This document shows positions 1-64,000 of a stretch of 64,000 bases of DNA, one piece after another. The stretch lies in assembly GCA_000091205.1 (NCBI GenBank), contig AP006501.2. One strand, given 5' to 3'. Numbering within the stretch: position 1 is the stretch's first letter; each line of letters starts with the position of its first letter. A program made the translations under genes and the position numbers. Under the pieces are notes generated by a model. That model was not told the DNA's origin, ran no database searches, and saw nothing but the letters and a program-made list of their open reading frames with translations. Source of the stretch: Cyanidioschyzon merolae (lineage: Eukaryota).

Positions 1-865
1 TCGTACGTAGAAAGCGATCAACTTGCAGCTGTGAAAAGTCACTGGGCGAGCGCAACTCATCCAGATTTTCGACAGTTTCAACAAGCTCTGTATGCATGCG
101 TCTCCGAATCGAGGCTATAATCTCTTTCTGCACCGACGCGGGGAGTGCCACGACGGCGTCAGCATCGATGTTTTCGAGGTCTGGTAACTCGAACGCTTCA
201 CAATTGGAACCATCATCTGATATGATTTCTTCTGAGGTAGCGCACGGGAGTCCAAATTCTGTACTGTCCCCTGCCATGAAGTCAAGCTCGTCACGTTGCC
301 TGCCATTGGTGTTCGCGTAATGAGAGCGCTGCACTTCGGGCTGGTTGCCATCGCTGGGCACGCGCGTTTCGTCGCCGGTAAGGCGTTTCGCACTTGTTCT
401 ACGGGGCATCGTTGGATGTTTTTCACGTGCAGTATCCGATTGCAGGGCAGTTTCCAGGGCATCTGCTGGCGCTAATGATGCTGACGCCTGCTCCTTCTGC
501 CTCGCAGTACGAGTGAGATGCAACTGAGCGAGGAGTAATCGCTCCGCAGCCCGTCGAAGCCGCGCTCGGTGTCGGTTTTGAATGTGCCTCCTTCGCTCCC
601 GTGTTCGGCGCTTCAACGAAGGCACTCCGCCATCAAATACGAAGACCGCCTCTATGCCGTAATAAAGAAGTTTGCAGCAGCGTCTAAATATGCCCAGAAG
701 GTGAGCGTTGCGTACCGTGGTCATCGCCTCGGTATCTCGGACGGCTCGAACAAACTGGTTCAGCCAGATGCTCGCATCAACAGCGACTCGCCGCCCCGAG
801 AGCGTTTCGATACCGACACGCTGGCCTGCTGGTGCCAGCAGTTCCCAGAGGCCACGAACGCCCAT
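1..865 (-). CDS. XPG/Rad2-family DNA repair endonuclease, N-terminal region. Partial: the gene continues beyond the window start.
   Basis: The minus-strand frame is open from ATG at 865..863 down to position 1. It is absent from the ORF track because it is truncated at the edge. The N-terminus reads MGVRGLWELLAPAGQR...RVADIWLNQ...HLLGIFRRCCKLLYYGIEAVFVFDGGVPSLKRTRRERH. This matches the XPG-N domain signature (human XPG MGVQGLWKLL...AVDISIWLNQ...[23 protein letters not shown]). It is followed by an acidic low-complexity spacer (…ELPDLENIDADAVVALPASVQKEII…), as XPG/Rad2 has but FEN1/EXO1 do not. Confidence 0.6.
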   Translation of the reverse strand, partial: MGVRGLWELLAPAGQRVGIETLSGRRVAVDASIWLNQFVRAVRDTEAMTTVRNAHLLGIFRRCCKLLYYGIEAVFVFDGGVPSLKRRTRERRRHIQNRHRARLRRAAERLLLAQLHLTRTARQKEQASASLAPADALETALQSDTAREKHPTMPRRTSAKRLTGDETRVPSDGNQPEVQRSHYANTNGRQRDELDFMAGDSTEFGLPCATSEEIISDDGSNCEAFELPDLENIDADAVVALPASVQKEIIASIRRRMHTELVETVENLDELRSPSDFSQLQVDRFLRT

Positions 866-2033
866 CCTAGCAGAGCAAACCGCGTCTCTGAAACGCTAAA
901 CAGTCAACAAGCAGGCACCCCTACCCAGGCGACGCTGAGTGTGCGATTCTGGCCCGCTCAAGGCAACGGATTGGTAATTAGCTTAGAGAAAGGTTGTTGG
1001 CACTGCGTCGTGGCCAGAGCTACCGACACGCAGCCTCACGTGTTGATGGTCCAGAGCCAGCGCAAACGAAATCCACAGCAAAATTTAGCGACACTGCCCC
1101 GAAAAACTTTACAATACACAGGAACTGGGGAAAGTTGATCAGTACCCCACACGAGTGAACGTGCACAGCAGCATATATTCGTGCTTGCCCCGAGAAGCTC
1201 CGCGCCAAACAGGCTGCTCGCTGACGGGCAACGAGACGCTGTTTCTTTGTAACGGTACGTTTTCAGGGGCAAAGCCTAGGCGGGCGGCAGCGCGCGAGCC
1301 TGCCTCACGGGGCACGTATTCTCGCAGGAATGGACAACCTATGCAATGCTGTTGTTCTATCGATCTGGATGAAGAACGCGTTCCGTAGGTGTCGCGGGAT
1401 CGCTAATCATGCCTTTTAGTGGATGTTATCCGAGGTTTGCCCGGGAACGGCACCGTTCGATCCAAGTCAGAGAAGCCTGGCGAGGCACGAATGCACGCAC
1501 AGACATTCGGTTGGCAGAGAACTTCTCAGCGTGCCTTGAGGGCGTCTCTGAACACGAGCCATCCCTGCTGGTGGAGCATACCAAAAGAAACGCGGGTCAG
1601 AATGAGTGTAGAAATATGTGTTCCACGGATTCTTCTGGCAATTTTGGTATGCAAAAGCAAACGAAACATGGTGCCCAGAGACGCGCCAATGCACCATATG
1701 TGTAGCGCTGAACAGACACTGTGGCACAAGAGTTAGATGGGGGAAACCTCTGCGTAGAAATACAAAAACCCGAAGTTCAGGGGCACATCAGAACACAGCG
1801 CCACTACGGCATTCTGGGCTATCCCAGCTTCTGGCGAGCGCCGGGTCGAACTGGTACCCACAAGGATACAACAAAGCCGTTCCGTCGCTGTGCGGCATCC
1901 GCACCAGTGATCACCGCGCCATCGTCGGCACAACCGGCAGACTCAGCACCCGCAGGATCGTTTGAACGAAAGAGCACCTACGACGTGATGGCCGTCTCTG
2001 GTTAGAGATGGTACCCGTAAAATGATGAAGGTT

Positions 2034-2800
2034 CTACGAGTACAGAGGGTAAGTATATACACACCTGCAGACGCGTCCCAGTCTTTTTTGATTGGCTGCC
2101 TGCTTTCGGCTGCAGTTTCTCCCTGCGCACTTCGAGTCTGAGATGCTGCCCATAAAGTTCAATCGCGCTAGCTCCTCGGGTCTCGACTTCAACGCCGCAT
2201 ATCTACTGACATTGATGGCGGCTTTGAAGTCTCGGTTCACAAATTCCATGCGTTTCTTGCTGGCGCCGCTGCTTGTACTCACCAGTGTAAGTCGTCCTCG
2301 AAGTCGTGGCCTCGGTGCTACAGCAGTATCGTCGTCGCCGTCCCGTCGGGCAAACACCTTTACTGGACTATCCCCCTACTTCGTCTTCGCCACTTGCTCT
2401 TTTCCGCTCGATGGTCGGCGAAAAGGGGAATTTTTTCGTTTCCTTTCCGGGAGCCGGCGATGATGGCCCTTCAGGATCCCCGGCTTTCATATCCATACCT
2501 TTTCCTTGGGGTTTTATCTCTTCAAATGAACGCACTTCGAACGCGTCTGCTATAAACCGCGAATAAGCATTTGGTGACACACATCTGGATGTGAATCACA
2601 ATCGAGATGAAATCCATAGCATTGAACTCCTGTGCCATCGGAGCACCGCGAATGTCTGGCACGCGAGGCGCCCAGGGGACTGAGGTCCGTCCGCCCTACA
2701 CCAGGGTTGCTGACCCGAGGTCTGCGTACCGGAACCGCGAAGGAGCTTGCCAACTCCTTAGTCAATAGTTTGGTTGGGTTGTATTGGCGTACGCCATATT
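2034..2800 (-). pseudogene. Degenerate TnpB/Fanzor-like ORF fragment, copy A. Only the C-terminal RuvC-III region is clearly retained.
   Basis: Minus-strand ORFs 2034..2357 (…KKRMEFVNRDFKAAINVSRYA…), 2368..2580 (…IADAFEVRSFEEIKPQGKG…) and 2550..2765 (…RVSNPGVGRT…SRARHSRCSDG…) lie in different frames. Together they align to copy B ORF2 and to the copy at 23990-24520 at about 85% nucleotide identity over conserved blocks. The NRDFKAAINV motif resembles TnpB RuvC-III (D-R-D-x-N-A-A-x-N-I). Confidence 0.4.
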
Positions 2801-4299
2801 CGCCTGACTGCGTTGCAAGGTAGCGTAGCTGCTTTTGAAACGGAGCTAGCCCTGGTCCACGGTTCGAAAGTTGCGGGCGTGATGCGCGGCCCCATGCCCC
2901 GGAGGTTTGCCATTGAGGGCTTCAAGTTCTCGCTGTATTTGATCGTACCGTTTTGCGCTGTTGTGTTCTTTGGTTCCAGCGATCACTCCTGGCTCGAGCA
3001 AGCTGTCGAGCGGTGGCGCTACGTCCAGTATCCCGTCAACGAAGAGTCAACGCTGACCTCCGCTGAAATCACAAGAAGGGTGTTTAAACAGCCGAAAACC
3101 GGGGCAGCTGAGGACCATCGAAAGTGAGCGAGTCTCGCGAAAGGGCGCCGCCCTTGCGCCTTCCGGAAGACACCCGTCTGGTCACTCTCGATGAGGTTCT
3201 GCAATGTTGCTGACGATCTCAACAGCAGGATGCGTGGATGGAAGCGTGGGCTTGCATGCTCGTCGAGACCTGAAATCGAAGAATACCCAGGCCTGCGCAG
3301 ATAACAGCATCGGTTCAGAAGCCAAAGTCGCAGTCTCCATAAGCAGATAAGAAATGACATCGGAACGGCCGGCTGTCAGACACAGGCACAAGCCATCGCA
3401 TATCGAAGAAGCTCGCTGGCCTCTATTAGACATCGTCATCTTACCCAAACGCTCACATCATTCCTTGTGAAAAAGCCATGGACAACGTAACGCCGAGATC
3501 GAGGCCTCTGTGCTGCATAATGCCTGCAACGAGCACGTTGGTAATGTCTAGTGTCAGCGATTTCTCCCATGCGCCACAAGAGATAAACGATTGCATCTCA
3601 AGAGCTCACAAATAGGGAACGGCTTGCCTCGTTCAGCGCTCGCTTCGAAAAATTTTAGCCCTGTCTGCGAGGCGACAACGCGTATCGTAATGCAGATTTT
3701 TCTCTTCGACAGAACCTTGGCACAACCTAGCTATCCCCGATCGCAGCGCCTGTTCGCAGCGCACAGGGAAGCATCAATCGTTCCACCTGCTTCCAAGTTC
3801 CACACGCCGTGCTTTCCCCCGAAGGAACCAGTAATTTTTACGCCATAACGTGTGCCGAGTGCATGCTATGAACACCAGCCGTAGCGCCTAAACCGCTGGC
3901 GCAGATGCATCACAGAGACAGAACAGCTTTTCCATTCCACAGAGGGCGTCGCCCGAGCAATGCTACACCTGACACGGAAACAGGGCTAATTATGATTCTG
4001 GGATCCTGCAAGCTGTGCAGACGGACGCACTGCCTGCGACAGCGCGAATCGACATTATAGGAGACCACTGCGACCAGGGCGACGCCCAGGCGCAGGCTAC
4101 CGGCTCCTAGTCCCAGAATGATATGCGTTGCGGATGAGTTGGTCAGGTCTCAATAAAGCACCTGCCACTGGGAGGAGCATCAAGCACTAGCCTGGGAGAC
4201 ATGTCCAGCTCGCGGGAGTTTCCGCCTGTAAAGTAAACTTTCGAAGGTATGGATGTCTCTTCCCCAGTTTGCAGTTTCTCGAAGAGGGAAAAGAAATCA

Positions 4300-6450
4300 T
4301 TATATCGTTGCTAGTGAATCGTGAGTCTCTGTTCTTTGTTCTAAATAGCGCGGTCGATATGCGCACCTCGAGATTTGGGAGTTACGAGACACGACGCGCA
4401 TCTCGCCATGAAGGGAAATACGATCGTGATCATTCGTTGTCTTCTTGCTCTAACGACAAGTTGCATTCGCGTAAAGTCCTAGCAAAGTATTGTTTTCATT
4501 TCAATCGTGTTTCAACTCTCAGGTTAGTGTACTCAAGTGATTTTTCACGGTTTATACCGAATGCGCTCAAAGTGCGTTATAAGAAAAATTAGGAAAAGGA
4601 AAGTTACGGAAAGGGAAGCGGAGGGTCCTGGAGACGCGGTTTCGTCGGCTAGCGGAGAAAAACGAAAAACAGTGCGGAGCAAAGCGGAGCACGAGAAGAC
4701 CAAGGAGCAAATGCAGGAGGCCGCACGTCAATGGCTGCAAGAAAGGCGACACTACGACGATATGGTAGTGAAAGACTGACTTCTCGGACATACCAGGGAT
4801 CCATCCAAGCAAAAGTTGTGAGAGGCCATCAGAAACCGTGTCGATTCGTACTCCATGAGTGTTACAAAGGCTTCGTCAGGGATCATGTATTTGGTGAGGG
4901 AGATGTATCGCGACGTGACGCACATGGAAACAGTCGAGAATCCGGAAGGGTTTTTCAACATGGCGTCTATCCGCCACCTGATGCTCGGCTCAGGGGAGAC
5001 GTCGATGAAACATGAGCGAGTGCACGCCCTCCACGAAAATCACACCAAATATCGCTTCAACGGTATTCGATACAGGGGTGACTGGGGTATTTACACCTAC
5101 GGGGCGATGAAGTACATCACGAACAAGAATAACCACATGATCGTGAACCTCAAACGTCTCGTGATATGCGCCGTCTTTGTGCTGTACCCGGGCCTCTCTC
5201 CAGAGGAATGAGATGGGCCATCGTCAGTGCCATCACCAACGATCGTCATCATGAAGATGAGGTCGAATTTGTGGACAAGAAGACCTCACGCAGGAGCACG
5301 AATAAAGCTTCTGCCCTGCGTGCGGCTACTCAAGAGCATCGTGCAGTCGTGGGGCTGGTCAATCCAGCAGAAGAGGTATCAGATATGGAATAAAGCATGG
5401 GAAAAGAAGTAACAACCAAATCCTGCGCTATTTCGTATTCCTGAACCGAGAACTCGAACACAAGGCGGAAATGGAGCAGGGTGTGGGGAACAATGCAGAG
5501 TCAGAGCAACGGAAGGCTGCGCTTCTGGAGAAGCGCTTCGACGTCGTTCGTATCTGCAACATCAAGTCACAATTTGGTACAATCGGCTTCAGAGTTCTTT
5601 ACGGCATCATGAACGAGATCTGTCCGGAGTTCGATGTAAGGAAGATAGAGTTCACCGGCGAAAACCGGGAATTCCATTGGAAAAATATCTTCGATTTCAA
5701 ACGTCTCAAAACGAGTAAGCAAAAAATATTCACGAGGATGATAGAAACCGATGGGGTATCCATGTGTGTACACTATCCGCGCTTGAAGGCAGATGGTCCT
5801 GTTGCGTCGTCGGCGTCGCCCGTGACGAAGCATGAAGGTGAGAAGAAGGCGGATCCTACGACGCAGAAAGTGCGGGGAAACGACTTTGTCGTTGGCGCGG
5901 CGAAGCATGAAGATGAGAAGGAGGCGGATCCTGCGACGCAGAAAGTGCAGGATAACGACTTTGTCAGTGGCGCGAACCCCGGAAACACGAATATCATAAC
6001 CATTGCAGCATGCAAGCGTGCGGGAGATGGTAAGGACGGCAACTTACGTCTGAAAGACACGCGTCTTTTGAGGTTCTCGAGAGCAAGATACTATCGAGAA
6101 TCCGGTATAATGAATGCGAGGAAGAAAATCGACACATGGAATGCAGGAATGAAGGATCACCTGGAAGCTATGAGCGGGGTAACGAGCCGCGGAGCGGACT
6201 TTGAAGCTTTTCTGAAATTCATGGGAGTTCGTGCTGCTCACTGGTAGGCGCTGTGGAGAGAATATACCAAGCCCCGGTGTTCTCGTCTGTGTATGAACTT
6301 GTACTGTGGGAAGAAGCGTGCATTTGCCAACTTTTTCTATCAGTTGAACGCCTTGGCTGGAGGACGAGAGTCAGAGAGTCGTAACAGCGACTGGAGCAGG
6401 GCTCTGCGCGTCCAAGAAAGGGAGCATACTCCCTGTATCGACAAGAGCGT
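4300..6450 (+). mobile_element. Repeated two-ORF element, copy B. ORF1 (unknown, coiled-coil N-terminus) is followed by a TnpB/Fanzor-like ORF2. Both are pseudogenised.
   Basis: It aligns at nucleotide and protein level to copy E (62380-64000). The 5' untranslated leader is conserved (4340-4600 vs 62425-62700). ORF1 has in-frame TGA stops at about 4782 and 4824 where copy E has Cys and Gln codons. A conserved TAA lies at the ORF1/ORF2 junction in both copies. Confidence 0.45.
5471..6450 (+). pseudogene. ORF2 of copy B, TnpB/Fanzor-like (RuvC-type OMEGA nuclease family). It is interrupted by an in-frame TAG at 6245 and has a degraded C-terminus.
   Basis: There is a RuvC-I-like block …[18 protein letters not shown]… (compare TnpB vvGIDlGikNlaTlS; here D is replaced by N), then …GADFEAFLKFMG… (compare TnpB sWgeFrrqLeYKa…G). 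Immediately after the TAG comes REYTKPRCSRLCMNLYCGKKR (compare eYTSqtCSxCG zinc finger), then AFANFFYQLNALAGG (a degenerate HaDvNAAiNIa RuvC-III). An internal 16-aa tandem duplication ([32 protein letters not shown]) is present. Confidence 0.4.
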
Positions 6451-6548
6451 ACAATGAGTGCGCTCACCGTTTTGTTGTAATACCGATAGATGAGTTCCGA
6501 ACGTCATACATACACCGTGAACTGGGACGTACACTTCACAGGGTCGAG

Positions 6549-6926
6549 ATGGAGCAGTACCAGCAAAGCCCTGGAGATATACAAAAACACAGAGCGCTGA
6601 CGGAAGAGCAAATGGAACGGAGGGCGAAATTTCGTGGACTAGTCGCACTGGTGAGTGTACCCAACGGCAAGAAACGTATAGAGTTTCTGAACCATGACTT
6701 TGACACAGCAATCAATGTAAGGCGATGTGCGGTGCTGGAGAACAGACCCCCCGCCCCACCCCCCGAGTTGACTAGAGCCAACTTCGTCGGGCGACCTCTC
6801 AAGGTCCCGTTGAACGGAAAGAAGCTGAAACCAATAGTAGCTGGCCGGTCGAGAAAAGCCTGGGAAGCGACTGCGCGTCTGCGTAGAGACATCCACGCTG
6901 TCGGCGTGATGTATGCGCGTTGGTAA
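6549..6926 (+). pseudogene. TnpB/Fanzor-like C-terminal fragment, copy C. It retains the RuvC-III motif and has no CxxC.
   Basis: …FRGLVALVSVPNGKKRIEFLNHDFDTAINVRRCAVLENRP…ELTRANFVG… aligns residue by residue with copy A (…LRGRLTLVSTSSGASKKRMEFVNRDFKAAINVSRYAALKSRPEELARLNFMG…). Confidence 0.35.
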
Positions 6927-7310
6927 ACCTGATTTGCCGGCGGTAGTTTCTTCAAAAAAAGCGCTCCGCAGCCAGCCATTTTGTGTGCGCAGCGAGCGTC
7001 ACTGCCCCTTTCAAAGCATATATTTCATATCCTAGTATCATAAAAGTGAGGGAGGTGTATTCTGAATACGAATATTCTGACGTGAAGAGCTCTTGATTTT
7101 TTTAAACACGACAGCAGCCCATACACGGAAGGGTGACGGCGACGGTGCGAGCGTGACAGGTTCGTGTACTTATCGAAGCAACATATCGCCCTCTAGGCCA
7201 CTGTTTTGCGCGGCGATATTTCCGCACTGAGGTGGGGTGTTCGTATTTTCTGTTTACAGGTGCCATATATTCCTTCATACGGTGCTAAGCTGTGATATAT
7301 TTCGGAAAAT

Positions 7311-8945
7311 ATGGATCAGGAAGCGGAGGCGCCGAGGATCCAGACTCCCAACGACCGTCCAGAGTCGGAGGGCGCGCCAGGCTCCGAACAGGATGGGAAC
7401 TCCCCATACTATCCCAGGATACATATCAAGTCGTTTGCTTTTGAACAAGAGCCTCATAGCGACATGGGATCTGCATGTTCGCTGTCGCCAACTGCCAAGA
7501 CGGAGGTGAATAAGCATGCCGTGCCTGCTGAGCAGCCCGCTGGTGCCGTTCACATGCAACCAGATGACCAGGGCAAGACACAAAGAAGTGTACAGAAAAA
7601 TGATGATCGTCCATCTGAAAACAGCGGTGGCTCGGAGATGAAACGAGCAGGCGTGGAAACGACGCGCCCCAGCCGAGCAGCGAAATATCGCACGGCTTCA
7701 CCAACACCCTCCACGAAAGGGCACAATCGTGGCACTGGAGCAACAAGAGGTAGGCCGAGAAAATACCCGGTAGCTTCAAGCCCATCAGCGGCGGAAGCCA
7801 GAATCACAAAGCGTCCGTATGGGGCATCGAACTCCATGCAACAGCACCATACCGACCGACACGTTGTGCCGGCGAGCGATGCACCGCAACCAGAGACCCC
7901 CACGGATATCGTCCTCTGCGCCTGCGGCAACGTGATCGACTTTGGGCCGATGATTCAGTGCTCTCGTTGCAAGGGCTGGTCACATAAGGTCTGTACGGGC
8001 CTATCGGACGCGGAATGGGAGCAGCTGCAAATGCAGCACGCCCGCTATCAGTGCTGGCTTTGTGCACCACGTAACGCTCGACCGAACTCCATCGCTGCAG
8101 ATGCAGTGCAGGCGTTGGCATCTGTTCGAACCGGTTCCAAGTGGAATACGATTATGGGCCGCATCATCGAGTCGGCGGCCATGGAAAACGCGGAGATTGT
8201 CGGTATGCCGCTCAGCAAACCGCGAAAGCATCGCATGGTTGAAAATATCATGACGGGCACGGGTCCGGGTCGAACGCATCGCTCGTCGGGCCCTCGAGTC
8301 GCGTCAACCGAGGGTTCAGTGCCGCTTGTGCGAGATAGCGCGAAAGAGAACGAATTTTTCGAAGCGCTCGCTGCACATTGGCAGCGCAAAACTGGGCAAC
8401 CGTGGCAAACCCCTATGTTTCGGGGGAAATTATTGGACCTCTATGCTTTATACTGGGGCGTCAAGGCACGCGGGGGCATTGACGCTGTGATCGCGTCGAA
8501 GCGCTGGCCCGAGATATGGCGCACCATGCGCAACTACTACCGCGAGTCTACGGATCACTCGTTCCGACTTCGCGTAGCGAGCCAGCAGTACTTGGCTGAC
8601 TTTCTGAGGCAGTACGCCGGGCCTCAGCCTTGGGATGTTGAGGTGCTGCACTCTGAGGAAAACGCGGACGAGGCCGTTACCCAGCAAAAAAAGCGAGCAC
8701 CTAGCGACCTGGTTCCAGCAGGCTATAAGGCGAGCCGGCGTGAGCGGGTCGTTACCACGGAGGAGTTTGTCAAACCTGAGCTGGCGCTCCCGAGCTCTGA
8801 ACCAGGTCAAACGAGTGCGAAGAAGTCTGAAACGAACGGCCCGCGGTCAGCACGGAGCCCAGCGGGTTCTGCTGTTCGCAAGGCAAGTGATGCAGTGAAA
8901 CCTGCGCCTCCGCAAAGCGACGACGACGAACTGAGCCTCGGGTGA
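7311..8945 (+). CDS. Chromatin protein with a PHD zinc finger and an ARID (AT-rich interaction) domain.
   Basis: Single 544-aa ORF. The PHD finger is CACGNVIDFGPMIQCSRCKGWSHKVCTG…YQCWLCAP (C4HC3 pattern). The ARID block is ENEFFEALAAHWQRKTGQPWQTPMFRGKLLDLYALYWGVKARGG. The flanks are low-complexity and basic. Confidence 0.75.
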   Translation: MDQEAEAPRIQTPNDRPESEGAPGSEQDGNSPYYPRIHIKSFAFEQEPHSDMGSACSLSPTAKTEVNKHAVPAEQPAGAVHMQPDDQGKTQRSVQKNDDRPSENSGGSEMKRAGVETTRPSRAAKYRTASPTPSTKGHNRGTGATRGRPRKYPVASSPSAAEARITKRPYGASNSMQQHHTDRHVVPASDAPQPETPTDIVLCACGNVIDFGPMIQCSRCKGWSHKVCTGLSDAEWEQLQMQHARYQCWLCAPRNARPNSIAADAVQALASVRTGSKWNTIMGRIIESAAMENAEIVGMPLSKPRKHRMVENIMTGTGPGRTHRSSGPRVASTEGSVPLVRDSAKENEFFEALAAHWQRKTGQPWQTPMFRGKLLDLYALYWGVKARGGIDAVIASKRWPEIWRTMRNYYRESTDHSFRLRVASQQYLADFLRQYAGPQPWDVEVLHSEENADEAVTQQKKRAPSDLVPAGYKASRRERVVTTEEFVKPELALPSSEPGQTSAKKSETNGPRSARSPAGSAVRKASDAVKPAPPQSDDDELSLG

Positions 8946-9190
8946 GGCCTCGACCCCCGCAAAGACAGGCGTGCCGGGGCTGTTTCCACCTTATCTGGCT
9001 TCAGGTGCCGTAGCGCGTTGTCCGGTCGCTTCCTACGTCTGCCAGTCTCGATAGACAGACTCGGTCGTTCGCTTCAGCCGTACACAACGGGCTGTGCCCA
9101 CACCGGAGCACGTTCAAGTGTGATCCGGTGGCTTAAAAGCTTCCTCAGTGGGGCGCTGAACGCCGGCAGGCTCCAGAGCACGCTTTCCAT

Positions 9191-9732: not shown

Positions 9733-11832
9733 CTACATGCAGCGATTGGCGGTGCTCCAAAGTCGAACGGTACCGTCATCACTCGCAGACGCAAAGAGCG
9801 CGAGATCCGTTGGACTCCACGCAACCGCATTCACTGTCCCAGTATGGCCTGCAAGTCGAGCACAGAGCTGACCCGAACGTCGTTTCCAGATGTATACGTG
9901 GGCATCTTCGCTGCCGCTCAGCACGAAGCATTCGCGAAAACCACCGAAACAGCTTCGGATCACAAAGCGACCCTGTTGATGCCCAATATAACGCTGAACT
10001 AGAGCGTTATGTTCAAAATCCCATTCGTGGATCTCAGGTCGCGGGCAACCGTCGCCGGAGGTGCTCACAAGCACGACCGGAATCGACTTTAATCGGGAAA
10101 CGCAGAGTGCTGTCATATTCTCGGACTCTTCGATGCAGGGACCTAGAGCGGTTGCCCCATCAGCATCATAGCGACAGATGCACCGGGCGGTGCAGATTCC
10201 CACGATCTCGTTGTAAAAGTAGTTCACCGCGATGTCGTTAAAGATGCGTCCATGAAAGGCGAGTACAACATGCGCTCGAACGCGGTCCATGCCGAGCGTC
10301 GTGCGCTCTCGCAACCCGTCGACGCGCCAGACGTAGAGATTGGAGTCTGTCAGGCTGGTAACGAAGCGCTCGCCGTCATGAAGCCAGGCACATGCAGTAA
10401 TCGCCTGGGTTTGTCTTTCACTTGCGAAACGACATCGACCGGTCCGCGTTTCCCACAGGCGCAAAACATGATCACCCGCTGCCGATAGGATCATCTCGTC
10501 GTCCGGCGACCAGGATACGGCACATATCGCGTCGCTGTGGCCGTCGAGCACCAGACAACCGGCGTGTTCGAACGCATCCGACCCGTTTGCCGATGATGCA
10601 TCATCGGTGGCGGGCTCGACACCATTGGAGAGAGCACGAACATCGGCAGCGGCCAGGTCAGCACGATGCTCGACGATCTGCTCATTGGATTGGCTGAGTC
10701 GCGCAACATCCCAAACGACAATAAGGCCGTCTTTGCCGGCGGAGAGGAGCCAACGACCACTGTGGGAAAACTGGACAAGCCAGACTTCATCCCGGTGCGC
10801 CTTGAGAATGCGCCATGTCTCGCTCGGTATGGCCATCGGTTGAAATACAAGATCCTCCAGTAACGAGGGACGCTCCTGATAGGTATATGGAAAACAAGCC
10901 TGCTGCAAATTCTCTCGCAGTGCTCGTCGCAAAAGCGTCTCCAATCGCCACTTTTCAATCGTTTTTTCCTTGCGGATGTACGGCTGCAGCTTGTGGAAGA
11001 GTTGCTCGCGCATGCAACGCCGCAACTCCACTCCATCCGTCGCTCCAAGTGGTACAGTCTTGGTCGTCTCTGGAACATCCTCGCCCTGTAGCACGGAGCG
11101 TAGAGACTCGCGGATCGCCTTGGAAAGTGAGCCCCTCGCATGTGAGACACGCAGCACAGCGATGGTGAGACGGTGCAGGCGCCAGGCCTCCTGCTGCGCT
11201 ACGGCGTTCGGCGATAGCTCCCGACACAGGCAGTCAACAGCGGCTTGCTGGAGCGCTTCCAGGCGCTGGCAACGCAGCACCCGCGCTGGTGCCGCTTCAT
11301 CGCCCTCTTCGACTTGCCCTAGAAGTTCCAGTAAAATTTCATACAGTTTTTGGGTATAAATGAGGAAGCGAGCCTCATCCACGAGCCTTGAAGCCTCAGG
11401 GGAAAGCGCTTCTTCTGGTGTTTCCGCAGCGGCCTGCTCTTTTTGGTAAGTTGTCCGACCAACCAGTCCAGGGAGGAGTTCTGCTGCTTGTTCCCACTCA
11501 CCGGAGAGCAGCAGTGTTTTCAAGCGACGCACGTCTGGTGAGCGTGCGAGAATACCTGCCTCGCGTTCGAGTGCCTGCGCTGTGCGGTGGTAGCCAAGGT
11601 CCTCCAGTTCCTGGAGCATAAGTCGCGTTATCTCTCTGCGATCGAGTTCCATGTCAGCGGGGTCACTCCAGCGCTGGCTGAGGCTCGCTGCCCTGCGTGT
11701 TACTGTACCCGCACTGTCGTGAAGCTCTTCTCTCGGTTCGTTCCGTCCGTTGCTACCTACTTCCGTGCCTGACCGCACATCTATCTCCATCAACTGGTCA
11801 GGAATTGGCGCTGCAGTGTGCGTGTCCGTCAT
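9733..11832 (-). CDS. LisH/CTLH/WD40-repeat protein, WDR26/GID7-like.
   Basis: 699-aa ORF. The N-terminal LisH (EITRLMLQELEDLGYHRTAQALEREAGI) and CTLH regions are followed by several WD40 repeats (…GHSDAICAVSWSPDDEMILSAAGDHVLRLWE…, …GHTGTVNAVAWSPTDLALFASASDDGTVRLWS). Confidence 0.8.
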   Translation of the reverse strand: MTDTHTAAPIPDQLMEIDVRSGTEVGSNGRNEPREELHDSAGTVTRRAASLSQRWSDPADMELDRREITRLMLQELEDLGYHRTAQALEREAGILARSPDVRRLKTLLLSGEWEQAAELLPGLVGRTTYQKEQAAAETPEEALSPEASRLVDEARFLIYTQKLYEILLELLGQVEEGDEAAPARVLRCQRLEALQQAAVDCLCRELSPNAVAQQEAWRLHRLTIAVLRVSHARGSLSKAIRESLRSVLQGEDVPETTKTVPLGATDGVELRRCMREQLFHKLQPYIRKEKTIEKWRLETLLRRALRENLQQACFPYTYQERPSLLEDLVFQPMAIPSETWRILKAHRDEVWLVQFSHSGRWLLSAGKDGLIVVWDVARLSQSNEQIVEHRADLAAADVRALSNGVEPATDDASSANGSDAFEHAGCLVLDGHSDAICAVSWSPDDEMILSAAGDHVLRLWETRTGRCRFASERQTQAITACAWLHDGERFVTSLTDSNLYVWRVDGLRERTTLGMDRVRAHVVLAFHGRIFNDIAVNYFYNEIVGICTARCICRYDADGATALGPCIEESENMTALCVSRLKSIPVVLVSTSGDGCPRPEIHEWDFEHNALVQRYIGHQQGRFVIRSCFGGFRECFVLSGSEDAHVYIWKRRSGQLCARLAGHTGTVNAVAWSPTDLALFASASDDGTVRLWSTANRCM

Positions 11833-13864
11833 TTCACGTTCAAGGTGCTAGGCAGCAATATAACGCCCGACTCGAACGTCGTGTCGCCGTCCAAAAGAAA
11901 GAAAGCGCCGCACTTGGGAACGTCCACGACCTGCACCGAACAGCGCTTGTGAGCGGAACGGTCTACTGGACATCTCGCGGCCGTTGCTGCGAGGTTGTAT
12001 GGTACGAGTGCTGCCGCGGTTTGCGAAGAAACTCGGAGATGGAGACGGGTGCCATGGGTTTTGTCGGTTCCTGCTTATGAACGCGTCGAGCTGAGCTTGG
12101 ACGCTGTAGTAAAGTTATGGAGGAGCGTTCAAGCGGTCTGCGGGGAAAACTGGTGATCGGCAGGTGCATCGCCTACGGCTCGTCTGGGCTTGTCTATGAA
12201 AGCGTCGACTTGAGTTTCGACGCTTCGATCACGCGCCGTGAACCGTTGTCAAGTGCACTCGTCTTGCAAGCTGCATACGACTAGGCATGTTTACACATTT
12301 TATACCGCAATCGCTGTACTGGCGTCCCGAAACACTCACTTGCAGATGTTTCTCTTGGAAAACGAGCTCGAAAACTCCTCGTGAGCTCGATGAGCGATAA
12401 AGCTCGGCTGCGGGCTCCGTTCAAAGGCTGCCACGGTCCAGCTCGGTGCAGTGGTCGCGGTGCTGCCTGTCCTTAGGGCGCTCAAACCGTTCCGAGCGGC
12501 TAAAGAGCCGGCTCGCTGAAAAAGCATCAGGTAGTGTCACTGTATTCGCGACTCGGTGGCTGAGTTCTTGTGCGATGTGTCGAGCGAGAGAATCGGAGAA
12601 CGTCTGCCGGTTTCGTCCGTCAGGGAGGTTTTGGTTACCGGGGCAGGTCGCTGCAGTGCCGACTGCTGAAACGCGGCCTTTGCATGCCCATAACAAAGTC
12701 CAAACTTTCTGTGAGCCAGTACGCATCTTTGTCCTTCTACGCATCGGCGATTGATTCGGATATTGTCGTTTACTGAAACGGTTCAATGCCAGCAGCTATT
12801 CGGATTTCATCCTGGACAGCACCGAAACTCGACCTGCATCACATGCTCTGAGACTTTCAGAGCGTGCGCTCGATGCGGAGCATGAACCTGTGGAGCCGCT
12901 CCACCGCTGTCGAGTGCGGCAGCATGCGCGCGTTCATGATGCACCCGGCTTTTTTGCCCCGTGACGAGCTCTTTTTTTAGATGGGCTATGAGGCGCCACC
13001 GTGGACAAGTCGCAGCATACCACGCCTCGGGAGACGCATCGTCAACTGCTTGCTCCGGAGAGCGGCTCATCGTGACCGTCCTGCAATCGCACGGTTCCGG
13101 TATTCATGAGCCAACGTACGCGACTTGACGTGATGTAGGGCGCTTGACCCTAACCAGGCAATTCTGGAGACGCGAACGCTACGAGCAATCAGGGAAGAGA
13201 CCATCACGACTCAACGAAAGATTTCACGTTCCGCGAAGCGTAGGATCATATCCTAACGCCGCGATGGCTGGCGCTCTCAAGGACATCGTTTGCTCGCATG
13301 CCTCCTTGCCATTACGGACAGGCGGACTGGAAGCCTATCGGTTTTGTCTGCAAAATCGTTTAGAATTCGGGTTTCGTGCTGAGCTGAACAAGGCTACACG
13401 CTTGGATGGTCTATGCGATATCCTGAAACGACTTGTGCAGTCATCATCCCGTAGAGTTCAAGTAAACATCGGCACCGCCACGTGATAAACCGCCGCACTT
13501 GTCCTGTATGTGCCTCCGCGCCAATCTTGCGCTAAAAAGCTTCATGTACAGCACTGCAACTTCATATTTGCTCCGAGAGCTTTCATAATCCACCGTGCTC
13601 TCTACGCGAACACCCCCTCATCTCGGTACATGCGCCTTGGCTCTACAGCACACTCTTTCTCACAAAGGTTTGCCGATCTTCGCAACAAATACAATGCAAG
13701 TTGTTCCCGCTGTTCGGGATCCTTGTTACCCAGCGCAGCTGCGAGCCTCAAACGCCGACGCTTATGAGCGCTGGACAAGTTGCCGTCGCGGCACAGTCGT
13801 ATATGCTGTGCTCCGCGCGCGCGCACTAACGCAACCTCCCTCGTCGAGCCGGAGCCCACAAAAG

Positions 13865-23989: not shown

Positions 23990-24520
23990 GGGGGAATGGA
24001 TGTGAAAAACGCCGCCCTCGGGCGCGCGAGGCGTGCGCCATGGAACGCACCGGCATCGCGACTGGCGGGTTTACACGTTCACCTGAATTGTGTTCCACAT
24101 CCAGATGCGTGCCATCCACTGCGTGTTCGCAGTGTACAGCAGATGCGTTCGAAGTGCGTTCATTTGAACAGATAAAAATCCAAGGGAAAGATATGGACGT
24201 GCAAGTCGAGGATCCTGAAGGGATTTCAAAGCTACCTGCTTGATAAAACCCTCATCTTGCTGATTATCAAAAGGCGAAGAAGTAGAAAAAGGAGGTAGGT
24301 GAGATAACGTGCGTGCTCGACGGGATGATGTCGAGACTGTAGTGGAACATGGGGCACCAGTCTGAAGACTCCTAGCGTTGACGAGTTCATCTAGCATCAA
24401 TATATGCAAGGAGTTCGTGAACTGCGACCCCATCACCACCATCAATATCAGATGACGTGTGGCGCTGAAGACGTGAGACCCCAGGAGCTGACGCGATCCA
24501 GTTTTATGGGGCAGCCTCTG
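23990..24520 (+). pseudogene. TnpB/Fanzor-like C-terminal fragment, copy D, with in-frame stops.
   Basis: ORF 24040..24243 (…TADAFEVRSFEQIKIQGKDMDVQVEDPEG…) and the frame at 24411 (EFVNCDPITTINIR*) align to copy A at about 85% nucleotide identity. Confidence 0.4.
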
Positions 24521-25813
24521 ATGCTCGGAATGTGCCTGGATAATAACTGAAGCCAATAGCAGCGGGTGCGCCGGTCAGAAAGGTTCGGGGGCGGGCAGGC
24601 GGCGCCTGCACGTCGGTATTCGTTTACCCCATATGATCGCGAAAAGGTTTCGCTCCACTGAGCGTATCTTGAATCTGTGATTCCACAAAATGCAACCACG
24701 ATTCCATTTCAAGTATTCGCAAAAGCTCATCGCCAATATGCAGCGACACCACCACTGGAGGACGGTGGCGTTTAAGCGCTTGGAGCAGTGTTGCAGATGC
24801 ATCTTATGCACGCGCTATTGGTACGTTCGTGTGCGTCACCCGAGCCAGGAAACAAAATGCTTTGGTAAAGCGTTCTTGATTCCGTGCAGCGTCCACACAG
24901 GCGTTATACGTGGTATGACACACCCTCACGTCAGGCTCGGTACCCGGCGGAGCACGCGAACGAACCGCTGTCTCTGAAGAGAAGTTTGTGGCAATTAGAG
25001 AAACCTGTCGATGGAGTGCGGCGTGATGGGTGCTCCCGCGACGGCGAATGCCACCTGCTCTGCCGGAGTTTTTCCAAGATGAAAGATCTTCCGATAGAGA
25101 AAATTCCTTCCACGTTGGATATCGCAAATTGCGGGCAATCGAGCAATTGCCCGCACGGAGATAGCGAGGCTGTCCCGTCTCGTAGCTAGGTGCGCGGTAT
25201 GCTCGGCACGCAGGGCACGGGGTTTACCACACCGAACCTGTACTTGCAACGAGAAGACCGGTCTGGGGCTTGTGGAACGTAGAAGCAACTGGAAGAGGAC
25301 CGCGGTCTCTTTCCTGGTAAACGGCGACATTCGTGCATCCGGATGTTCTGGTTTGAATCGTCGATCCCTTATCATCCAAAATACCGCCACTCGTTGTGCT
25401 CGTTGCAGTGCACGCGAACGTGCACACCATGGCTCGTGCTTCGCTACCAACCGCTGCGATGACTCGAGCGACGCATCGTGTGCTTCGACCCGAACGCCGA
25501 ACGCGATGCAGCCTCGCAATCACCAATAGTTGATGCACACATTGTTCTCGGCATGCGGCTCCGAGTACAGGATGGCGTCGTTTGCGCAGGAATGGTAGTC
25601 AAAATCCAAATGGAAACCTGTTTGCGGCACGAGTGCCAGCGAAACGCGAACGCGTACCGCGAGGATTATACAAGAGCATCACCCTTCGAGCGCGTCTCTT
25701 CTCCCCAGTGGTATCGGTGCTCTTACTAGGTAGCCTGCGTCACGCGTCATGCAAATCGCATATCTTCTCGAGATCACAGAAGCCGCCCTAATCGACTTTG
25801 GCGCTGGGCATTA

Positions 25814-61420: not shown

Positions 61421-62379
61421 GTGCGCTCGCATATCCAGCTTACAAAGTACTCAGCATCGGATTACCCAAAAGGAGCTCGTCATTGGAGGGCACGGCACCG
61501 GGTACGGAAACGGAGGCGGACATCGAATGGAGTCCTCTGCACCAGACATAAGCATGCACAGAACGATGAAGCATCCCGTCGCGTGTCAACGAGCAGACCT
61601 CACCGGAGCAGGTGCCGTGGACATAATGGAATACCTGACCAAGGTCGAGTGTCGACGGTTCTCCAGCGCACCAAAGTTGTATACAAAGATGATGATGAGA
61701 CTAGCAAGCGGTGCGTAGCTTGCAGCTTTTGCGAGTGCATGAAATGCATGCACAACAGTCCGAAGGACGGGAAAAGAGGACAAAAATACCGAAACGAGTT
61801 ACTAACAACCAACGTGCTACCAGTTTCTTTCCTCCTCTTCGGTGAGCGTTACAAGAGGAAAAAGTTTTCCCAATTCTCAAAAGGTTACCATCTAGGCGGA
61901 AGGTCTCGCGAGCCGGACGAGCCTGCCGGGCATACGCTCTGTGCGCCTCTGCAGCGACCGATGCTGTAGTGAGATCGCCGCTGCCCTTCGGCAACGCAAC
62001 TCAGTCTGGGACTCGCAGCGAGTATGCTGCATTTCAGCGTCGCGCAGGTCGCAGAGGACCCCTAGCATATCGCATCGCGCTGTCGCAGGCAATACGTCTT
62101 TCTGCGCATCTTGCAGGCTCCCTGAATGACAATAAATCCCGATTCCATGTCGTGCAGAACACGCTTCGAGCCGGCGCCCTCAGCGGTATGACAACGCCGT
62201 TCTGTCTCCGTGATGCATCGGCATCAGCGGTGTAAGCGTTAAGGCGCGTGCTCGAAGTGGCACTCGGCGCACGATAGAACGTACGAAACGAACAATATAC
62301 CCAAAACGAAGTACAAGTAATGGAACTAGAAGGTAGGTGCTTCATCATGGGCGATTTCCCGAAAGCCGATACCTATCCC

Positions 62380-64000
62380 GCAATCTGGGATCCATGGTCC
62401 AGTTTAGACGTTTTGTCATCGGAAAACGAATCGACGCTTAGCGAGCGCACCTAGGAGATCTGGCAGGCATGAGACACGACGCGTACGGTGCCGTTGTTGA
62501 AGGGAAACGCGATTTTGATCAGTAGCGTGTTATTCAGCTGGAAAAGTTGGATTTCCGTTCAGGACGTAGCAACGTATAGTTTTTCAGTTCATTTGTGTTT
62601 CAAAACTCAAACAAGTCTAGTCAAGTGTTTTTTTCGTAGTATATTGGAGAAGCGTTCACAGAGTGCTTCTTTTCAAAAAAACTAAAAGAAAAGGAAAGTT
62701 ATGAAAAACTGAGTCGACGATCCTGGAGGCCCAGGGTCGCTGGCTGCCGGAGATGAACACATTGTTTCGAGTCCAGAAGAAAGAGGAAGAGAAGAAGAAC
62801 CGAAAGAAGGAGGCCCGACGCCAATGGCAGCAAGAAAGACGACGATACGACGAGATGGTGGTGAAAGCCTGTCTTCTTAATTATATCAAGGATCTCTACA
62901 AGCACAAATTGCAAGAGGACATCCAAAACCGTGTCGACTCGTACTCTAAGAGTATTGTCAAGGCCTCGTCAGGACTGATGCATTTGGCGAGGGAGATGTA
63001 CGGAGACGTGGCGCACATGGAAACGGTCGAGATTCCTGACGAGTTTTTCGACATGACCTTTCTTCGTCACCTGATGCTTGGTACAGCGAAAGCGCGGAAG
63101 GAAAATGTGCTAGTGCATGCCCTCCACGAAAACTTCGCGGAATTCCGCTTCGAGGGTAATCGATACAGCGGTGACGGAAATATTTACACCTACGGGCGAT
63201 GAAGTACCTCACGAACCTGAAGAACCATTTGACGATGAACCTCAAAAGTTTCACGATACGTTCCGTGTTTGGACTCTACCCGGACCCATATCGCAAAGGG
63301 ATATGGGCCATCATCAATGGCATCACGAACGATCGCTTTCATGAACAGGAGATCGAATTCTTCGACAAGAAGACATTACACAGGAGAAAGAATGAAGCTT
63401 CTGTGATCTGCGCGGTCATACAAGAGTACCATGCAGTACTGGGGCTGGCGAATCCAGCAGACAAGATATCAGCTACGAAAAAAGATAAGAAATAATGTTA
63501 TCACCTTATCCTGCGCTATTTTGTGTTTTTGGACCGAGAACTCGAACGCAAGGCCGAAAGGCAGCTGAGTGGGGGAAAATGAAGAGTTGTTGGAACGGAA
63601 GGCTGCCCTGATGGGGAAGTGCTTCAACGTCGTTCCGTTGTGCAGCATCAAGTCACATTTTGTGAATATCGACTCCGGAGTCCTTCATGGCATCGTGAGA
63701 GAGATCAGTCCGGAGTTCGATGTAAGGAAGATAGAGTCCACCGACGAAATGCGGGAGACGTTCTAGAAAATTATCCTTAATTTCAAACGTCTCAAAGTGA
63801 GCAAGCAAAACATATTCACTGGGATGATCGAAACCGATGGAGTAGCCATGTGTGTACACTATCGGCGGTTGAAAACAGATCGGCCAGTTCCGTCCTCGGC
63901 TTCGCCCGTGACGAAGGATGAGGAAAACAAAGAGGTGGATCCTGCGACGCAGAAGGTGCATGAGAACGACTTTGTCGTTGGCGCACACCCCGGAAACACA
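62380..64000 (+). mobile_element. Repeated two-ORF element, copy E (ORF1 plus the start of TnpB/Fanzor-like ORF2). It runs off the window end.
   Basis: ORFs 62753..63202, 63199..63495 and 63569..63766 and the frame from 63780 are co-linear with copy B ORFs 4537..6247 at about 60-70% aa identity. The leader (62425-62700) and the ORF1/ORF2 junction block (ATCCTGCGCTATTT.GT.TT…GACCGAGAACTCGAAC.CAAGGC.GAAA) are conserved. The end of the window shows …[12 protein letters not shown] (the RuvC-I-like block, with D replaced by H). Confidence 0.45.

Follow-up and report, generated by a model that had tools for sequence, protein, structure and literature searches.

A 64,000-nt stretch of the Cyanidioschyzon merolae genome (contig AP006501.2; hereafter the window) carries a dispersed, interrupted repeat whose translated pieces recall the RuvC nucleases of the TnpB/Fanzor group. 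The question is which element left these relics, whether it is new, and whether any copy could still work. An initial annotation, made from the sequence alone, proposed a decayed family of TnpB/Fanzor-like nucleases in an algal genome, present in at least five copies (A to E) that share one protein and have an unrecognised partner encoded by an upstream open reading frame (ORF). We conclude, with a probability of about 95%, that the relics are decayed copies of CMe-1A, a Fanzor1-encoding DNA transposon family of C. merolae strain 10D. The core of the initial proposal is borne out by profile matches confined to Fanzor1, by the same proteins at the top of a fold search, and by the C. merolae host. 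Its novelty for this lineage is not, since CMe-1A and its protein CMe-1 were published by Bao & Jurka in 2013 (PMC3627910); the element, the genome and the Fanzor1 assignment are the same.

Assignment to CMe-1A and to Fanzor1

All six long host ORFs in the window match C. merolae strain 10D proteins exactly (CMS239C, CMS247C, CMS261C and neighbours); the window has a GC content of about 55% and ORFs without introns. The repeat family lies far above chance, positions 4361-5898 in copy B and 62445-63984 in copy E being 74.6% identical over 1,560 nt (self-blast, E=0). When the CMe-1A consensus was compared with the window using blastn, it aligned at 82-84% identity over 3.1 kb and 1.55 kb, and the pieces of CMe-1 in the window copies were 65-77% identical to that protein. 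The host is the one from which CMe-1A was described, and copies B and E are colinear with the 3,169-bp consensus at family-level identity.

In a literature search on Fanzor and Cyanidioschyzon, the 2013 paper (Mob DNA 4:12, Additional files 1-3) was the only one to describe the element. It reports a consensus of 3,169 bp, a protein (CMe-1) of 734 amino acids (aa) classed as Fanzor1, and about 150 decayed copies, each about 80% identical to the consensus and without terminal inverted repeats (TIRs); the 5' 635 bp are 95% identical to a separate element, TE-N2_CMe (Bao & Jurka 2013, PMC3627910). Copy number, identity to the consensus, lack of TIRs and the TE-N2_CMe part all agree with the window. 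Nothing essential differs from the consensus. Single copies differ by decay, the TE-N2_CMe module is inverted at copy E, and copy B has two 75-bp coding units where the consensus has one.

Copy B, stitched across its interruptions, has 48 homologs in a large protein collection. The best of these, P0001, is an uninterrupted 752-aa ORF on a metagenome contig (E=1e-261, 55% identity, 91% coverage); further full-length homologs have 620-700 aa and 28-38% identity, and among six of full length the columns D-P-G, D-E-x-R and N-R-D-x-N-A-A-x-N-I do not vary. An exhaustive HMMER search gave 4,571 clusters at 50% identity with E<=1e-3 and 547 with E<=1e-30, many members being 600-650 aa long. A family profile was built from 109 diverse full-length members, in which D378, G380 and E539 never vary and the conservation of P379, R582 and D583 is 90% or higher. 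Against all PDB sequences, this profile matched only three proteins at E<=10, all of them Fanzor1 and over 370-480 aligned positions: those of Parasitella parasitica (PpFz, 9cf0, E=3.8e-25), Spizellomyces punctatus (SpuFz, 8gkh, E=5.4e-20) and Guillardia theta (GtFz, 9cer, E=7.4e-15). No TnpB or Fanzor2 chain was found at that threshold. In the profile alignments, the family motifs DPGR, vdEFrTt and nRDlNAA sit on matching motifs of all three proteins, and the catalytic columns D378/E539/D583 align with D383/E541/D606, the metal-binding residues of SpuFz1 (PMC10432273). The split RuvC residues of CMe-1 are D431, E603 and D672.

An AlphaFold2 model was made of a 623-aa member, P0047. The structural comparison, which the initial annotation had suggested as a check, came out in its favour: Foldseek retrieved SpuFz (7e-16), PpFz (1e-14) and GtFz (1.5e-10) first, followed by AsCas12f and Cas12k, and the seven best matches (E 7.1e-16 to 1.5e-10, probability 1.0) were all SpuFz, PpFz or GtFz chains. 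By profile and predicted fold, the family is assigned to Fanzor1, the eukaryotic TnpB/Cas12-type nucleases with a split RuvC domain.

Catalytic motifs can be followed in the copies themselves, all on the plus strand in B and E. RuvC-I reads SGANPGNT in copy B (5966-5989), where the GAC codon for the catalytic Asp has become AAC (Asn, 5975-5977; consensus GADPGN), and VGAHPGNT in copy E (63977-64000), where it has become CAC (His, 63986-63988). RuvC-III of copy B, FLNHDFDTAINV at 6684-6719, keeps its Asp (6696-6698) with Arg changed to His; it contains NHDFDTAINV, copy A has NRDFKAAINV, and the family motif NRD.NAA.NI aligns with the NRD of SpuFz1 (D606). The initial annotation placed both motifs correctly (FLNHDFDTAINV in B, EFVNRDFKAAINV in A). 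The other two of its four TnpB equivalences did not hold. The supposed helix ADAFEVRSFEEIK of copies A and D, equated with ADFEAFLKF, lies upstream of the ATG position and is therefore translated 5' untranslated region (UTR), not a homologous segment, and EYTKPRCSRLC, taken for a zinc-finger remnant, matches EEYTKPRWARLRMNLY in intact proteins, a helical stretch about 80 residues upstream of RuvC-II. The true RuvC-II, IPIDEFRTS (6480-6506; IDEFRTS at 6486-6506), had been overlooked; it lies in another frame, past a frameshift near 6377, and retains its Glu (6492-6494). After 6377, frame 2 of copy B reads VVIPIDEFRTSYIH...RGLVALVSVPNGKKRIEFLNHDFDTAINV, which is nearer to TnpB-type RuvC-II and RuvC-III than the block cited earlier. 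The family-invariant Glu aligns with DEYKTS of SpuFz1 (E541) and DEFRTS of PpFz.

Fanzors carry the RuvC-I Asp in a DPG motif, where TnpBs have D-hydrophobic-G (Yoon et al. 2023), and an alternative Glu in DE(F/Y)x[TS][TS]; some 45 residues before it, P or G occupies the site where TnpB has its canonical Glu (Yoon 2023, Jiang 2023). The family shows both hallmarks, and VVAYGAG stands about 45 residues upstream of its Glu, where canonical TnpBs carry Glu. The 2013 motif of Bao & Jurka further specifies a spacing of D-X(125-275)-[TS][TS] and a C4 zinc finger with X(5-50) before RD (PMC3627910); the distance from D431 to T606 of CMe-1, 174 residues, falls within the former.

Several results weigh against this assignment. 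Between TS and RD, CMe-1 has only H610, H611, C615 and C625 where four zinc-finger cysteines are called for, and the gap of 63 residues is longer than the 2013 motif allows (5-50). CMe-1 and most of its clade lack the canonical C4 zinc finger, at most the cysteine of LLWC being kept in the clade, and intact members without the finger might differ biochemically from other Fanzors. The profile search that had been proposed as a check depended on depth: neither Pfam nor the PDB returned a significant match for stitched copy B, six intact homologs reached nothing in Pfam beyond Cas12f1-like_TNB matches below threshold, and a 6-sequence profile found no Fanzor in the PDB, so that the 109-member profile was needed to reach the Fanzor1 chains. 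Confidence in the AlphaFold2 model is moderate (pLDDT 68, with the C-terminal 85 residues below 50), and query-normalised TM-scores to Fanzor structures are 0.41-0.45. At the element's 3' end, 39 hand-specified pairs were 82% paired with no covariation above shuffles, as expected of dead copies, and we infer the omega-RNA and the nuclease function of CMe-1 from family membership only.

The missing zinc finger is treated here as clade-specific degeneration and not as a ground for exclusion, CMe-1 being listed as Fanzor1 by Bao & Jurka. It is probably the reason why Pfam TNB and OrfB_Zn_ribbon scores stay below threshold and why the precomputed annotation of family proteins consists only of PF26935 (DUF8286). 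Proteins with PF26935, which marks many members of the family, appear to be Fanzor1 nucleases of this degenerate-zinc-finger clade. The Fanzor reading stands because the deep profile and the fold search both recover Fanzor1; the complete lack of TnpB, Fanzor or Cas12 RuvC matches that the initial annotation had named as grounds for dropping it was not observed.

Competing explanations

The partner gene proposed initially would make the repeat a new two-gene Fanzor element, with an unknown ORF1 protein beside a TnpB-like ORF2, and the layout of copy B invites that view, since stops and changes of frame lie between its upstream frames (4537-5400) and the RuvC part. In intact homologs and in the published CMe-1, however, both parts are read through as one protein: the upstream pieces are the N-terminal half of a 734-aa product, the consensus holds this single ORF with no ORF1 partner and no transposase gene, and the ORF of the best-preserved related locus (L001, below) is continuous. 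The upstream part also aligns with the REC/WED half of the PpFz and SpuFz structures, and the family has been on record since 2013. We give a two-gene element practically no chance. The TnpB likeness could also be fortuitous and the protein could have an unrelated fold, for example that of another transposase; searches of Pfam and the PDB with the decayed copy, single intact proteins and the 6-sequence profile gave no significant TnpB or Fanzor match, and two of the four motif matches first put forward were spurious. Against this, the deep profile matches Fanzor1 chains only, down to E=4e-25 over 370-480 positions, an independent fold search returns the same three proteins with probability 1.0, and the catalytic columns are invariant, which makes coincidence extremely improbable.

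A prokaryotic TnpB (IS200/IS605 or IS607) or a Fanzor2, brought in by contamination or recent horizontal transfer, would share the RuvC core, which is common to TnpB, Fanzor1 and Fanzor2, and Cas12f and Cas12k do appear among the weaker fold matches. But the neighbouring genes are exact C. merolae nuclear genes, RuvC-I has the DPG of Fanzors with the Glu in the Fanzor position, and no TnpB or Fanzor2 chain came up at E<=10. The 734-aa protein with its long N-terminal half is Fanzor1-like, and the presence of multiple copies, each with only about 80% identity to the consensus, points to a long stay in the genome. Such an origin is very unlikely, if a shade less so than the two explanations above. 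Fanzor2 of the IS607 type was also considered specifically and rejected, there being no second ORF for a serine-recombinase TnpA and no Fanzor2 match in the PDB. That a window copy still functions through introns, programmed frameshifts or stop read-through draws on the introns of some Fanzor genes and on the RuvC-II Glu and RuvC-III Asp kept in copy B. Yet neither the intact homolog nor the consensus has introns, and both stay colinear with copy B at every interruption. Copy B has ATG changed to ACG, four stops and Asn at the catalytic Asp, where copy E has His, and its +/-1 shifts come without gaps of intron size. We consider a working copy in the window next to impossible. A decayed CMe-1A family encoding a Fanzor1 is thus the explanation we retain.

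Anatomy, decay and ends of the copies

Of the five copies first listed as sharing one protein, the repeat family as such and copy E proved real. Copies B and C are one copy, since residues 1-752 of P0001 map across both (4672-6791, tblastn), and A and D do not share the protein. Copy B, as redefined, is a near-full-length degenerate CMe-1A on the plus strand (3708-6963), running from consensus position 5 (c5; consensus positions are prefixed c) to about c3160-3169; it extends about 600 bp further upstream than the start at 4300 given initially. By blastn, c62-2196 corresponds to 3766-5900 (82.3%) and c2117-3089 to 5896-6879 (81.9%); local alignment puts the ends at 3708 (c5) and about 6952, and the terminal GCG falls near 6963 when 3' ends are aligned. 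Its 5' module (3708-4345, c1-~641) is the non-coding TE-N2_CMe part in direct orientation. The conserved non-coding 5' core of the Fanzor module follows (4349-4605, c~648-905), including a GTTGAAGGGAAA-like block, and homology to L001 and most other copies begins near 4349.

The degenerate coding region of copy B (4606-6926, plus strand) was reconstructed by three-frame translation, stitching and tblastn, in which CMe-1 residues 2-722 align at 65-70% identity. A tandem pair of 75-bp coding units (25 aa, KHE.EK.ADP.TQKV..NDFV.GA) lies directly before RuvC-I (5826-5974), the two units (5826-5899 and 5901-5974) being 89% identical by self-blast. Across loci, this 75-80-bp unit (c2117-2196) occurs in one to five tandem copies: two in B, one in the consensus and four in P0001 and L001. 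The degenerate 3' terminal segment of copy B (6861-6963, plus strand), at the position expected of an omega-RNA scaffold or right end, is badly eroded.

Copy E (62445-64000, plus strand, c660-2209) consists of the Fanzor module and is cut by the window end. It aligns with c660-2209 at 62445-63999 (blastn, 83.9% over 1,561 nt); by tblastn, CMe-1 residues 50-435 are spread over three frames and P0001 residues 28-488 map onto 62846-64000. Beside it lies a TE-N2_CMe module on the minus strand (61777-62421), whose c1 end and the 5' end of copy E are separated by about 23 bp; c1-618 matches 62421-61801 at 79.7% (blastn), and local alignment extends this to c1-641 (62421-61777). The inversion of this module accounts for the inverted match between 4001-4244 and 62121-61877.

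Copy A (2063-2612, minus strand) is an internally deleted derivative in which c793-969 (2612-2432) and c2851-3088 (2302-2063), matched by blastn at 73-76%, are joined by about 130 nt; it retains EFVNRDFKAAINV, and only the last ~55 residues of P0001 map there by tblastn. Copy D (24078-24562, plus strand) is the same derivative with more decay and unrelated flanks (c843-934 at 24126-24221 and c2854-3010 at 24364-24519; 68-76%), and was not picked up by tblastn with intact homolog proteins. The two are about 500 bp long, 67% identical to each other, and retain nothing but c~800-960, with 5' UTR and ~18 codons from the start of the ORF, and c~2870-3090, with its final ~80 codons. Identical in their internal deletion, and both ending in a short tail not found in the consensus, A and D descend from one old deletion derivative, although their flanks are unrelated.

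All copies in the window are non-functional, as the initial annotation held: B and E are degenerate, and A and D are deletion derivatives. Relative to the consensus, copy B has lost its start codon (ATG to ACG, 4606-4608), has in-frame stops at 4777, 4819, 5391 and 6245 and is frameshifted near 5205, 5418 and 6377. The consensus has GAG (Glu) where copy B has TAG at 6245, so that the read-through proposed there was correct. Copy E likewise has stops and frameshifts. Introns were rejected as the source of the frame changes, intact relatives being colinear without gaps. Substitutions show a transition-to-transversion ratio of about 1.2 and a mild GC-to-AT excess; these values point to ordinary neutral drift, and a strongly biased mutation spectrum, such as that of repeat-induced point mutation (RIP), was rejected on the same grounds.

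Orthologous contigs of related strains are 95-99% identical to and colinear with window positions 1-9000, including copies A and B, and both insertions are thus old and fixed. Environmental and SRA contigs at this level of identity (L073-L074, L075-L082) have the dead copies A and B in common with the window, down to one 258-codon ORF fragment; assemblies from short reads end inside copy B, 563 bp upstream of CMS239C. An empty site or target-site duplication was sought at the orthologous CMS239C loci, and all ten recovered contigs carry copy B or break inside it. The search for intact copies and termini that had been suggested was fruitful for a reading frame and for one end (below), and yielded no empty site. 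Among 72 related loci from JGI metagenomes, only L001 has a frame that is nearly complete and free of stops (CMe-1 residues 11-699), and the three motifs are all present in it. This sole near-intact copy (10001-12259; JGI 3300050362, Ga0504780_000149) has an 819-codon stop-free frame with GADPGN, VDEFRT and NRDFNAA, stops about 35 residues before the consensus C-terminus and is without the TE-N2_CMe module. A second locus, L002, 99% identical to the L001 copy, is split in two.

The TE-N2_CMe module is not always joined to the Fanzor module as in the consensus. Most copies start at c~648-690 without it. At copy E, L052 and L055, TE-N2 (or a whole CMe-1A) points the other way, and about 23 bp separate its c1 end from the Fanzor 5' end; incomplete TE-N2 pieces, likewise inverted, lie about 120 bp upstream in six loci (cited with L013, L015, L016, L019, L022, L030 and L032), and in L019 and L032 TE-N2 begins 56 bp past the Fanzor 3' end. 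Upstream of the conserved core (ATCG|CGCTCG...GTTGAAGGGAAACGCGATCCTGAT), at least four recurrent sequence classes were seen (L001-L072; window 4280-4400 and 62376-62500). Because of these classes, and with a 3' end that is sharp, we describe the 5' side of the Fanzor module as modular or fuzzy; the MCi-2 Fanzor elements of Mucor (2013) show a similar pattern. Two elements that are often neighbours may have been merged in the CMe-1A consensus. A stronger version, in which TE-N2_CMe and a ~2.5-kb Fanzor module of the zinc-finger-less clade are independent elements, seems to us doubtful, with odds clearly against it. If it were true, such elements, lacking both TIRs and a transposase, might spread in a one-ended or homing-type fashion, driven by the Fanzor nuclease and aimed at each other's ends, a mode not yet described for Fanzor elements.

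An intact element measures about 2.5-3.2 kb and comprises an optional 5' TE-N2_CMe module, a conserved non-coding leader of ~260 bp, one intronless 734-aa ORF (CMe-1) and a ~60-nt 3' non-coding tail with a sharp boundary. No significant TIRs came up in the element as a whole or in its TE-N2 and Fanzor modules taken singly; the best inverted end matches scored 14-20 against a shuffled 95th percentile of 19. In an alignment of 49 copies, the 3' boundary is sharp at c3169 with unrelated flanks beyond. These flanks (L001-L072) often start with TT and are G/T-rich (TTGTTGGTGCG, TTGATGGTGC, GTGGTGGTG, TTTGGTGTGG), which may reflect a target preference or a guide-adjacent bias.

Two pairings were noted near the 3' end: a perfect 9-bp long-range complement (CAGTAGTGG / CCACTACTG, c3042-3051 with c3124-3133) that spans the stop codon region, and a terminal palindrome, TTCGA-CTT-TCGAA, in c3149-3169, 5-10 nt from the boundary. 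Both are kept in most copies without compensatory changes, the terminal hairpin showing one-sided changes only, and are eroded in the window (6829-6963); either an RNA scaffold or a signal marking the end at the DNA level could account for them. Compared with shuffles, folding of the 3' 130 nt gave z=-3.5 for the consensus, -2.0 for L001 and -0.7 for L039, and the 5' leader gave z=+2.0. RNAalifold predicted no pairs from 49 aligned 3' ends, and Rfam at gathering thresholds had no match in the whole window. If it behaves like SpuFz1 and GtFz1, an intact CMe-1 would bind an omega-RNA templated by the 3' end of the element, and the flank beyond that end would serve as the guide for cutting DNA next to a target-adjacent motif, which would help the element to persist or spread. 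For transposition itself, an enzyme acting in trans would be required.

Significance and comparison with known systems

As a discovery, the family carries little weight, given that the element and its protein had been described from this genome, and classed as Fanzor1, by 2013. Biochemical and structural data on Fanzor1 proteins date from 2023 onwards, and the mechanism of the family was established in 2023-2024. What is useful is that a RuvC/Fanzor relic was recognised from raw sequence, that the copy structure of the window has been corrected, and that Pfam DUF8286 is flagged as probable Fanzor1s whose degenerate zinc finger hides them from standard TnpB/TNB models. The composite consensus, modular 5' ends, variable coding repeat and zinc-finger-less clade are residual refinements that leave the overall picture unchanged. 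Nothing in the window is functional as a source of tools. C. merolae grows in hot and acidic conditions, and for this reason a CMe-1 resurrected from the consensus could interest tool builders.

The closest characterised relatives are SpuFz1 (PDB 8GKH, 9CEU-9CEZ), PpFz and GtFz1 (9CF0-3, 9CER-T), with profile and fold similarity across REC/WED and RuvC. Like the CMe-1 family, they have DPG, DE(F/Y)(R/K)TS and NRD motifs, 600-750 aa and single-ORF elements of 2-3 kb, although identity to the CMe-1 clade is only about 12-17%. Where SpuFz, PpFz and GtFz have CxxC...CxxxxC, the clade has TTkvhhed...RGLLWC.ST and CMe-1 itself TSYTHHELGC...RGLLALVS. The Spu-1 element has TIRs of 30-33 bp and TA duplications, whereas CMe-1A has none detectable. 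An omega-RNA and cleavage have been demonstrated for SpuFz1 and GtFz1; for CMe-1 they are predicted.

Among algae, VCa-1 and VCa-2, Fanzor1 proteins of Volvox carteri (Bao & Jurka 2013), come from a green-algal host and were compared with the CMe-1 clade by inspection only. By eye, they share with it the clade-specific strings QRLRLYG.K..F..FF and VIVAYS..KFA..G.GE.AVPT.RA.KEC...L.TFPVDEFR, and are without CxxC pairs. Copies A and D, at ~500 bp, resemble the ghost loci of S. punctatus, which are non-coding Fanzor derivatives of ~550 nt that keep 3' sequence (Saito et al. 2023). Ghost loci, however, keep both inverted repeats and the omega-RNA region, whereas A and D have lost the final ~80 nt of CMe-1A, terminal palindrome included, have a short tail of their own, and are only two old copies in the window. 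More distantly, ISDra2 TnpB and Cas12f have the RuvC fold and the D-E-D logic in common with the CMe-1 family, Cas12f and Cas12k being its next-best fold matches. They differ in their much smaller size, their D-hydrophobic-G RuvC-I and their C4 zinc ribbon, and carry the Glu at the canonical position. TnpB in IS200/IS605 is partnered with the TnpA transposase, and the CMe-1 family profile has no sequence-level match to TnpB or Cas12f.

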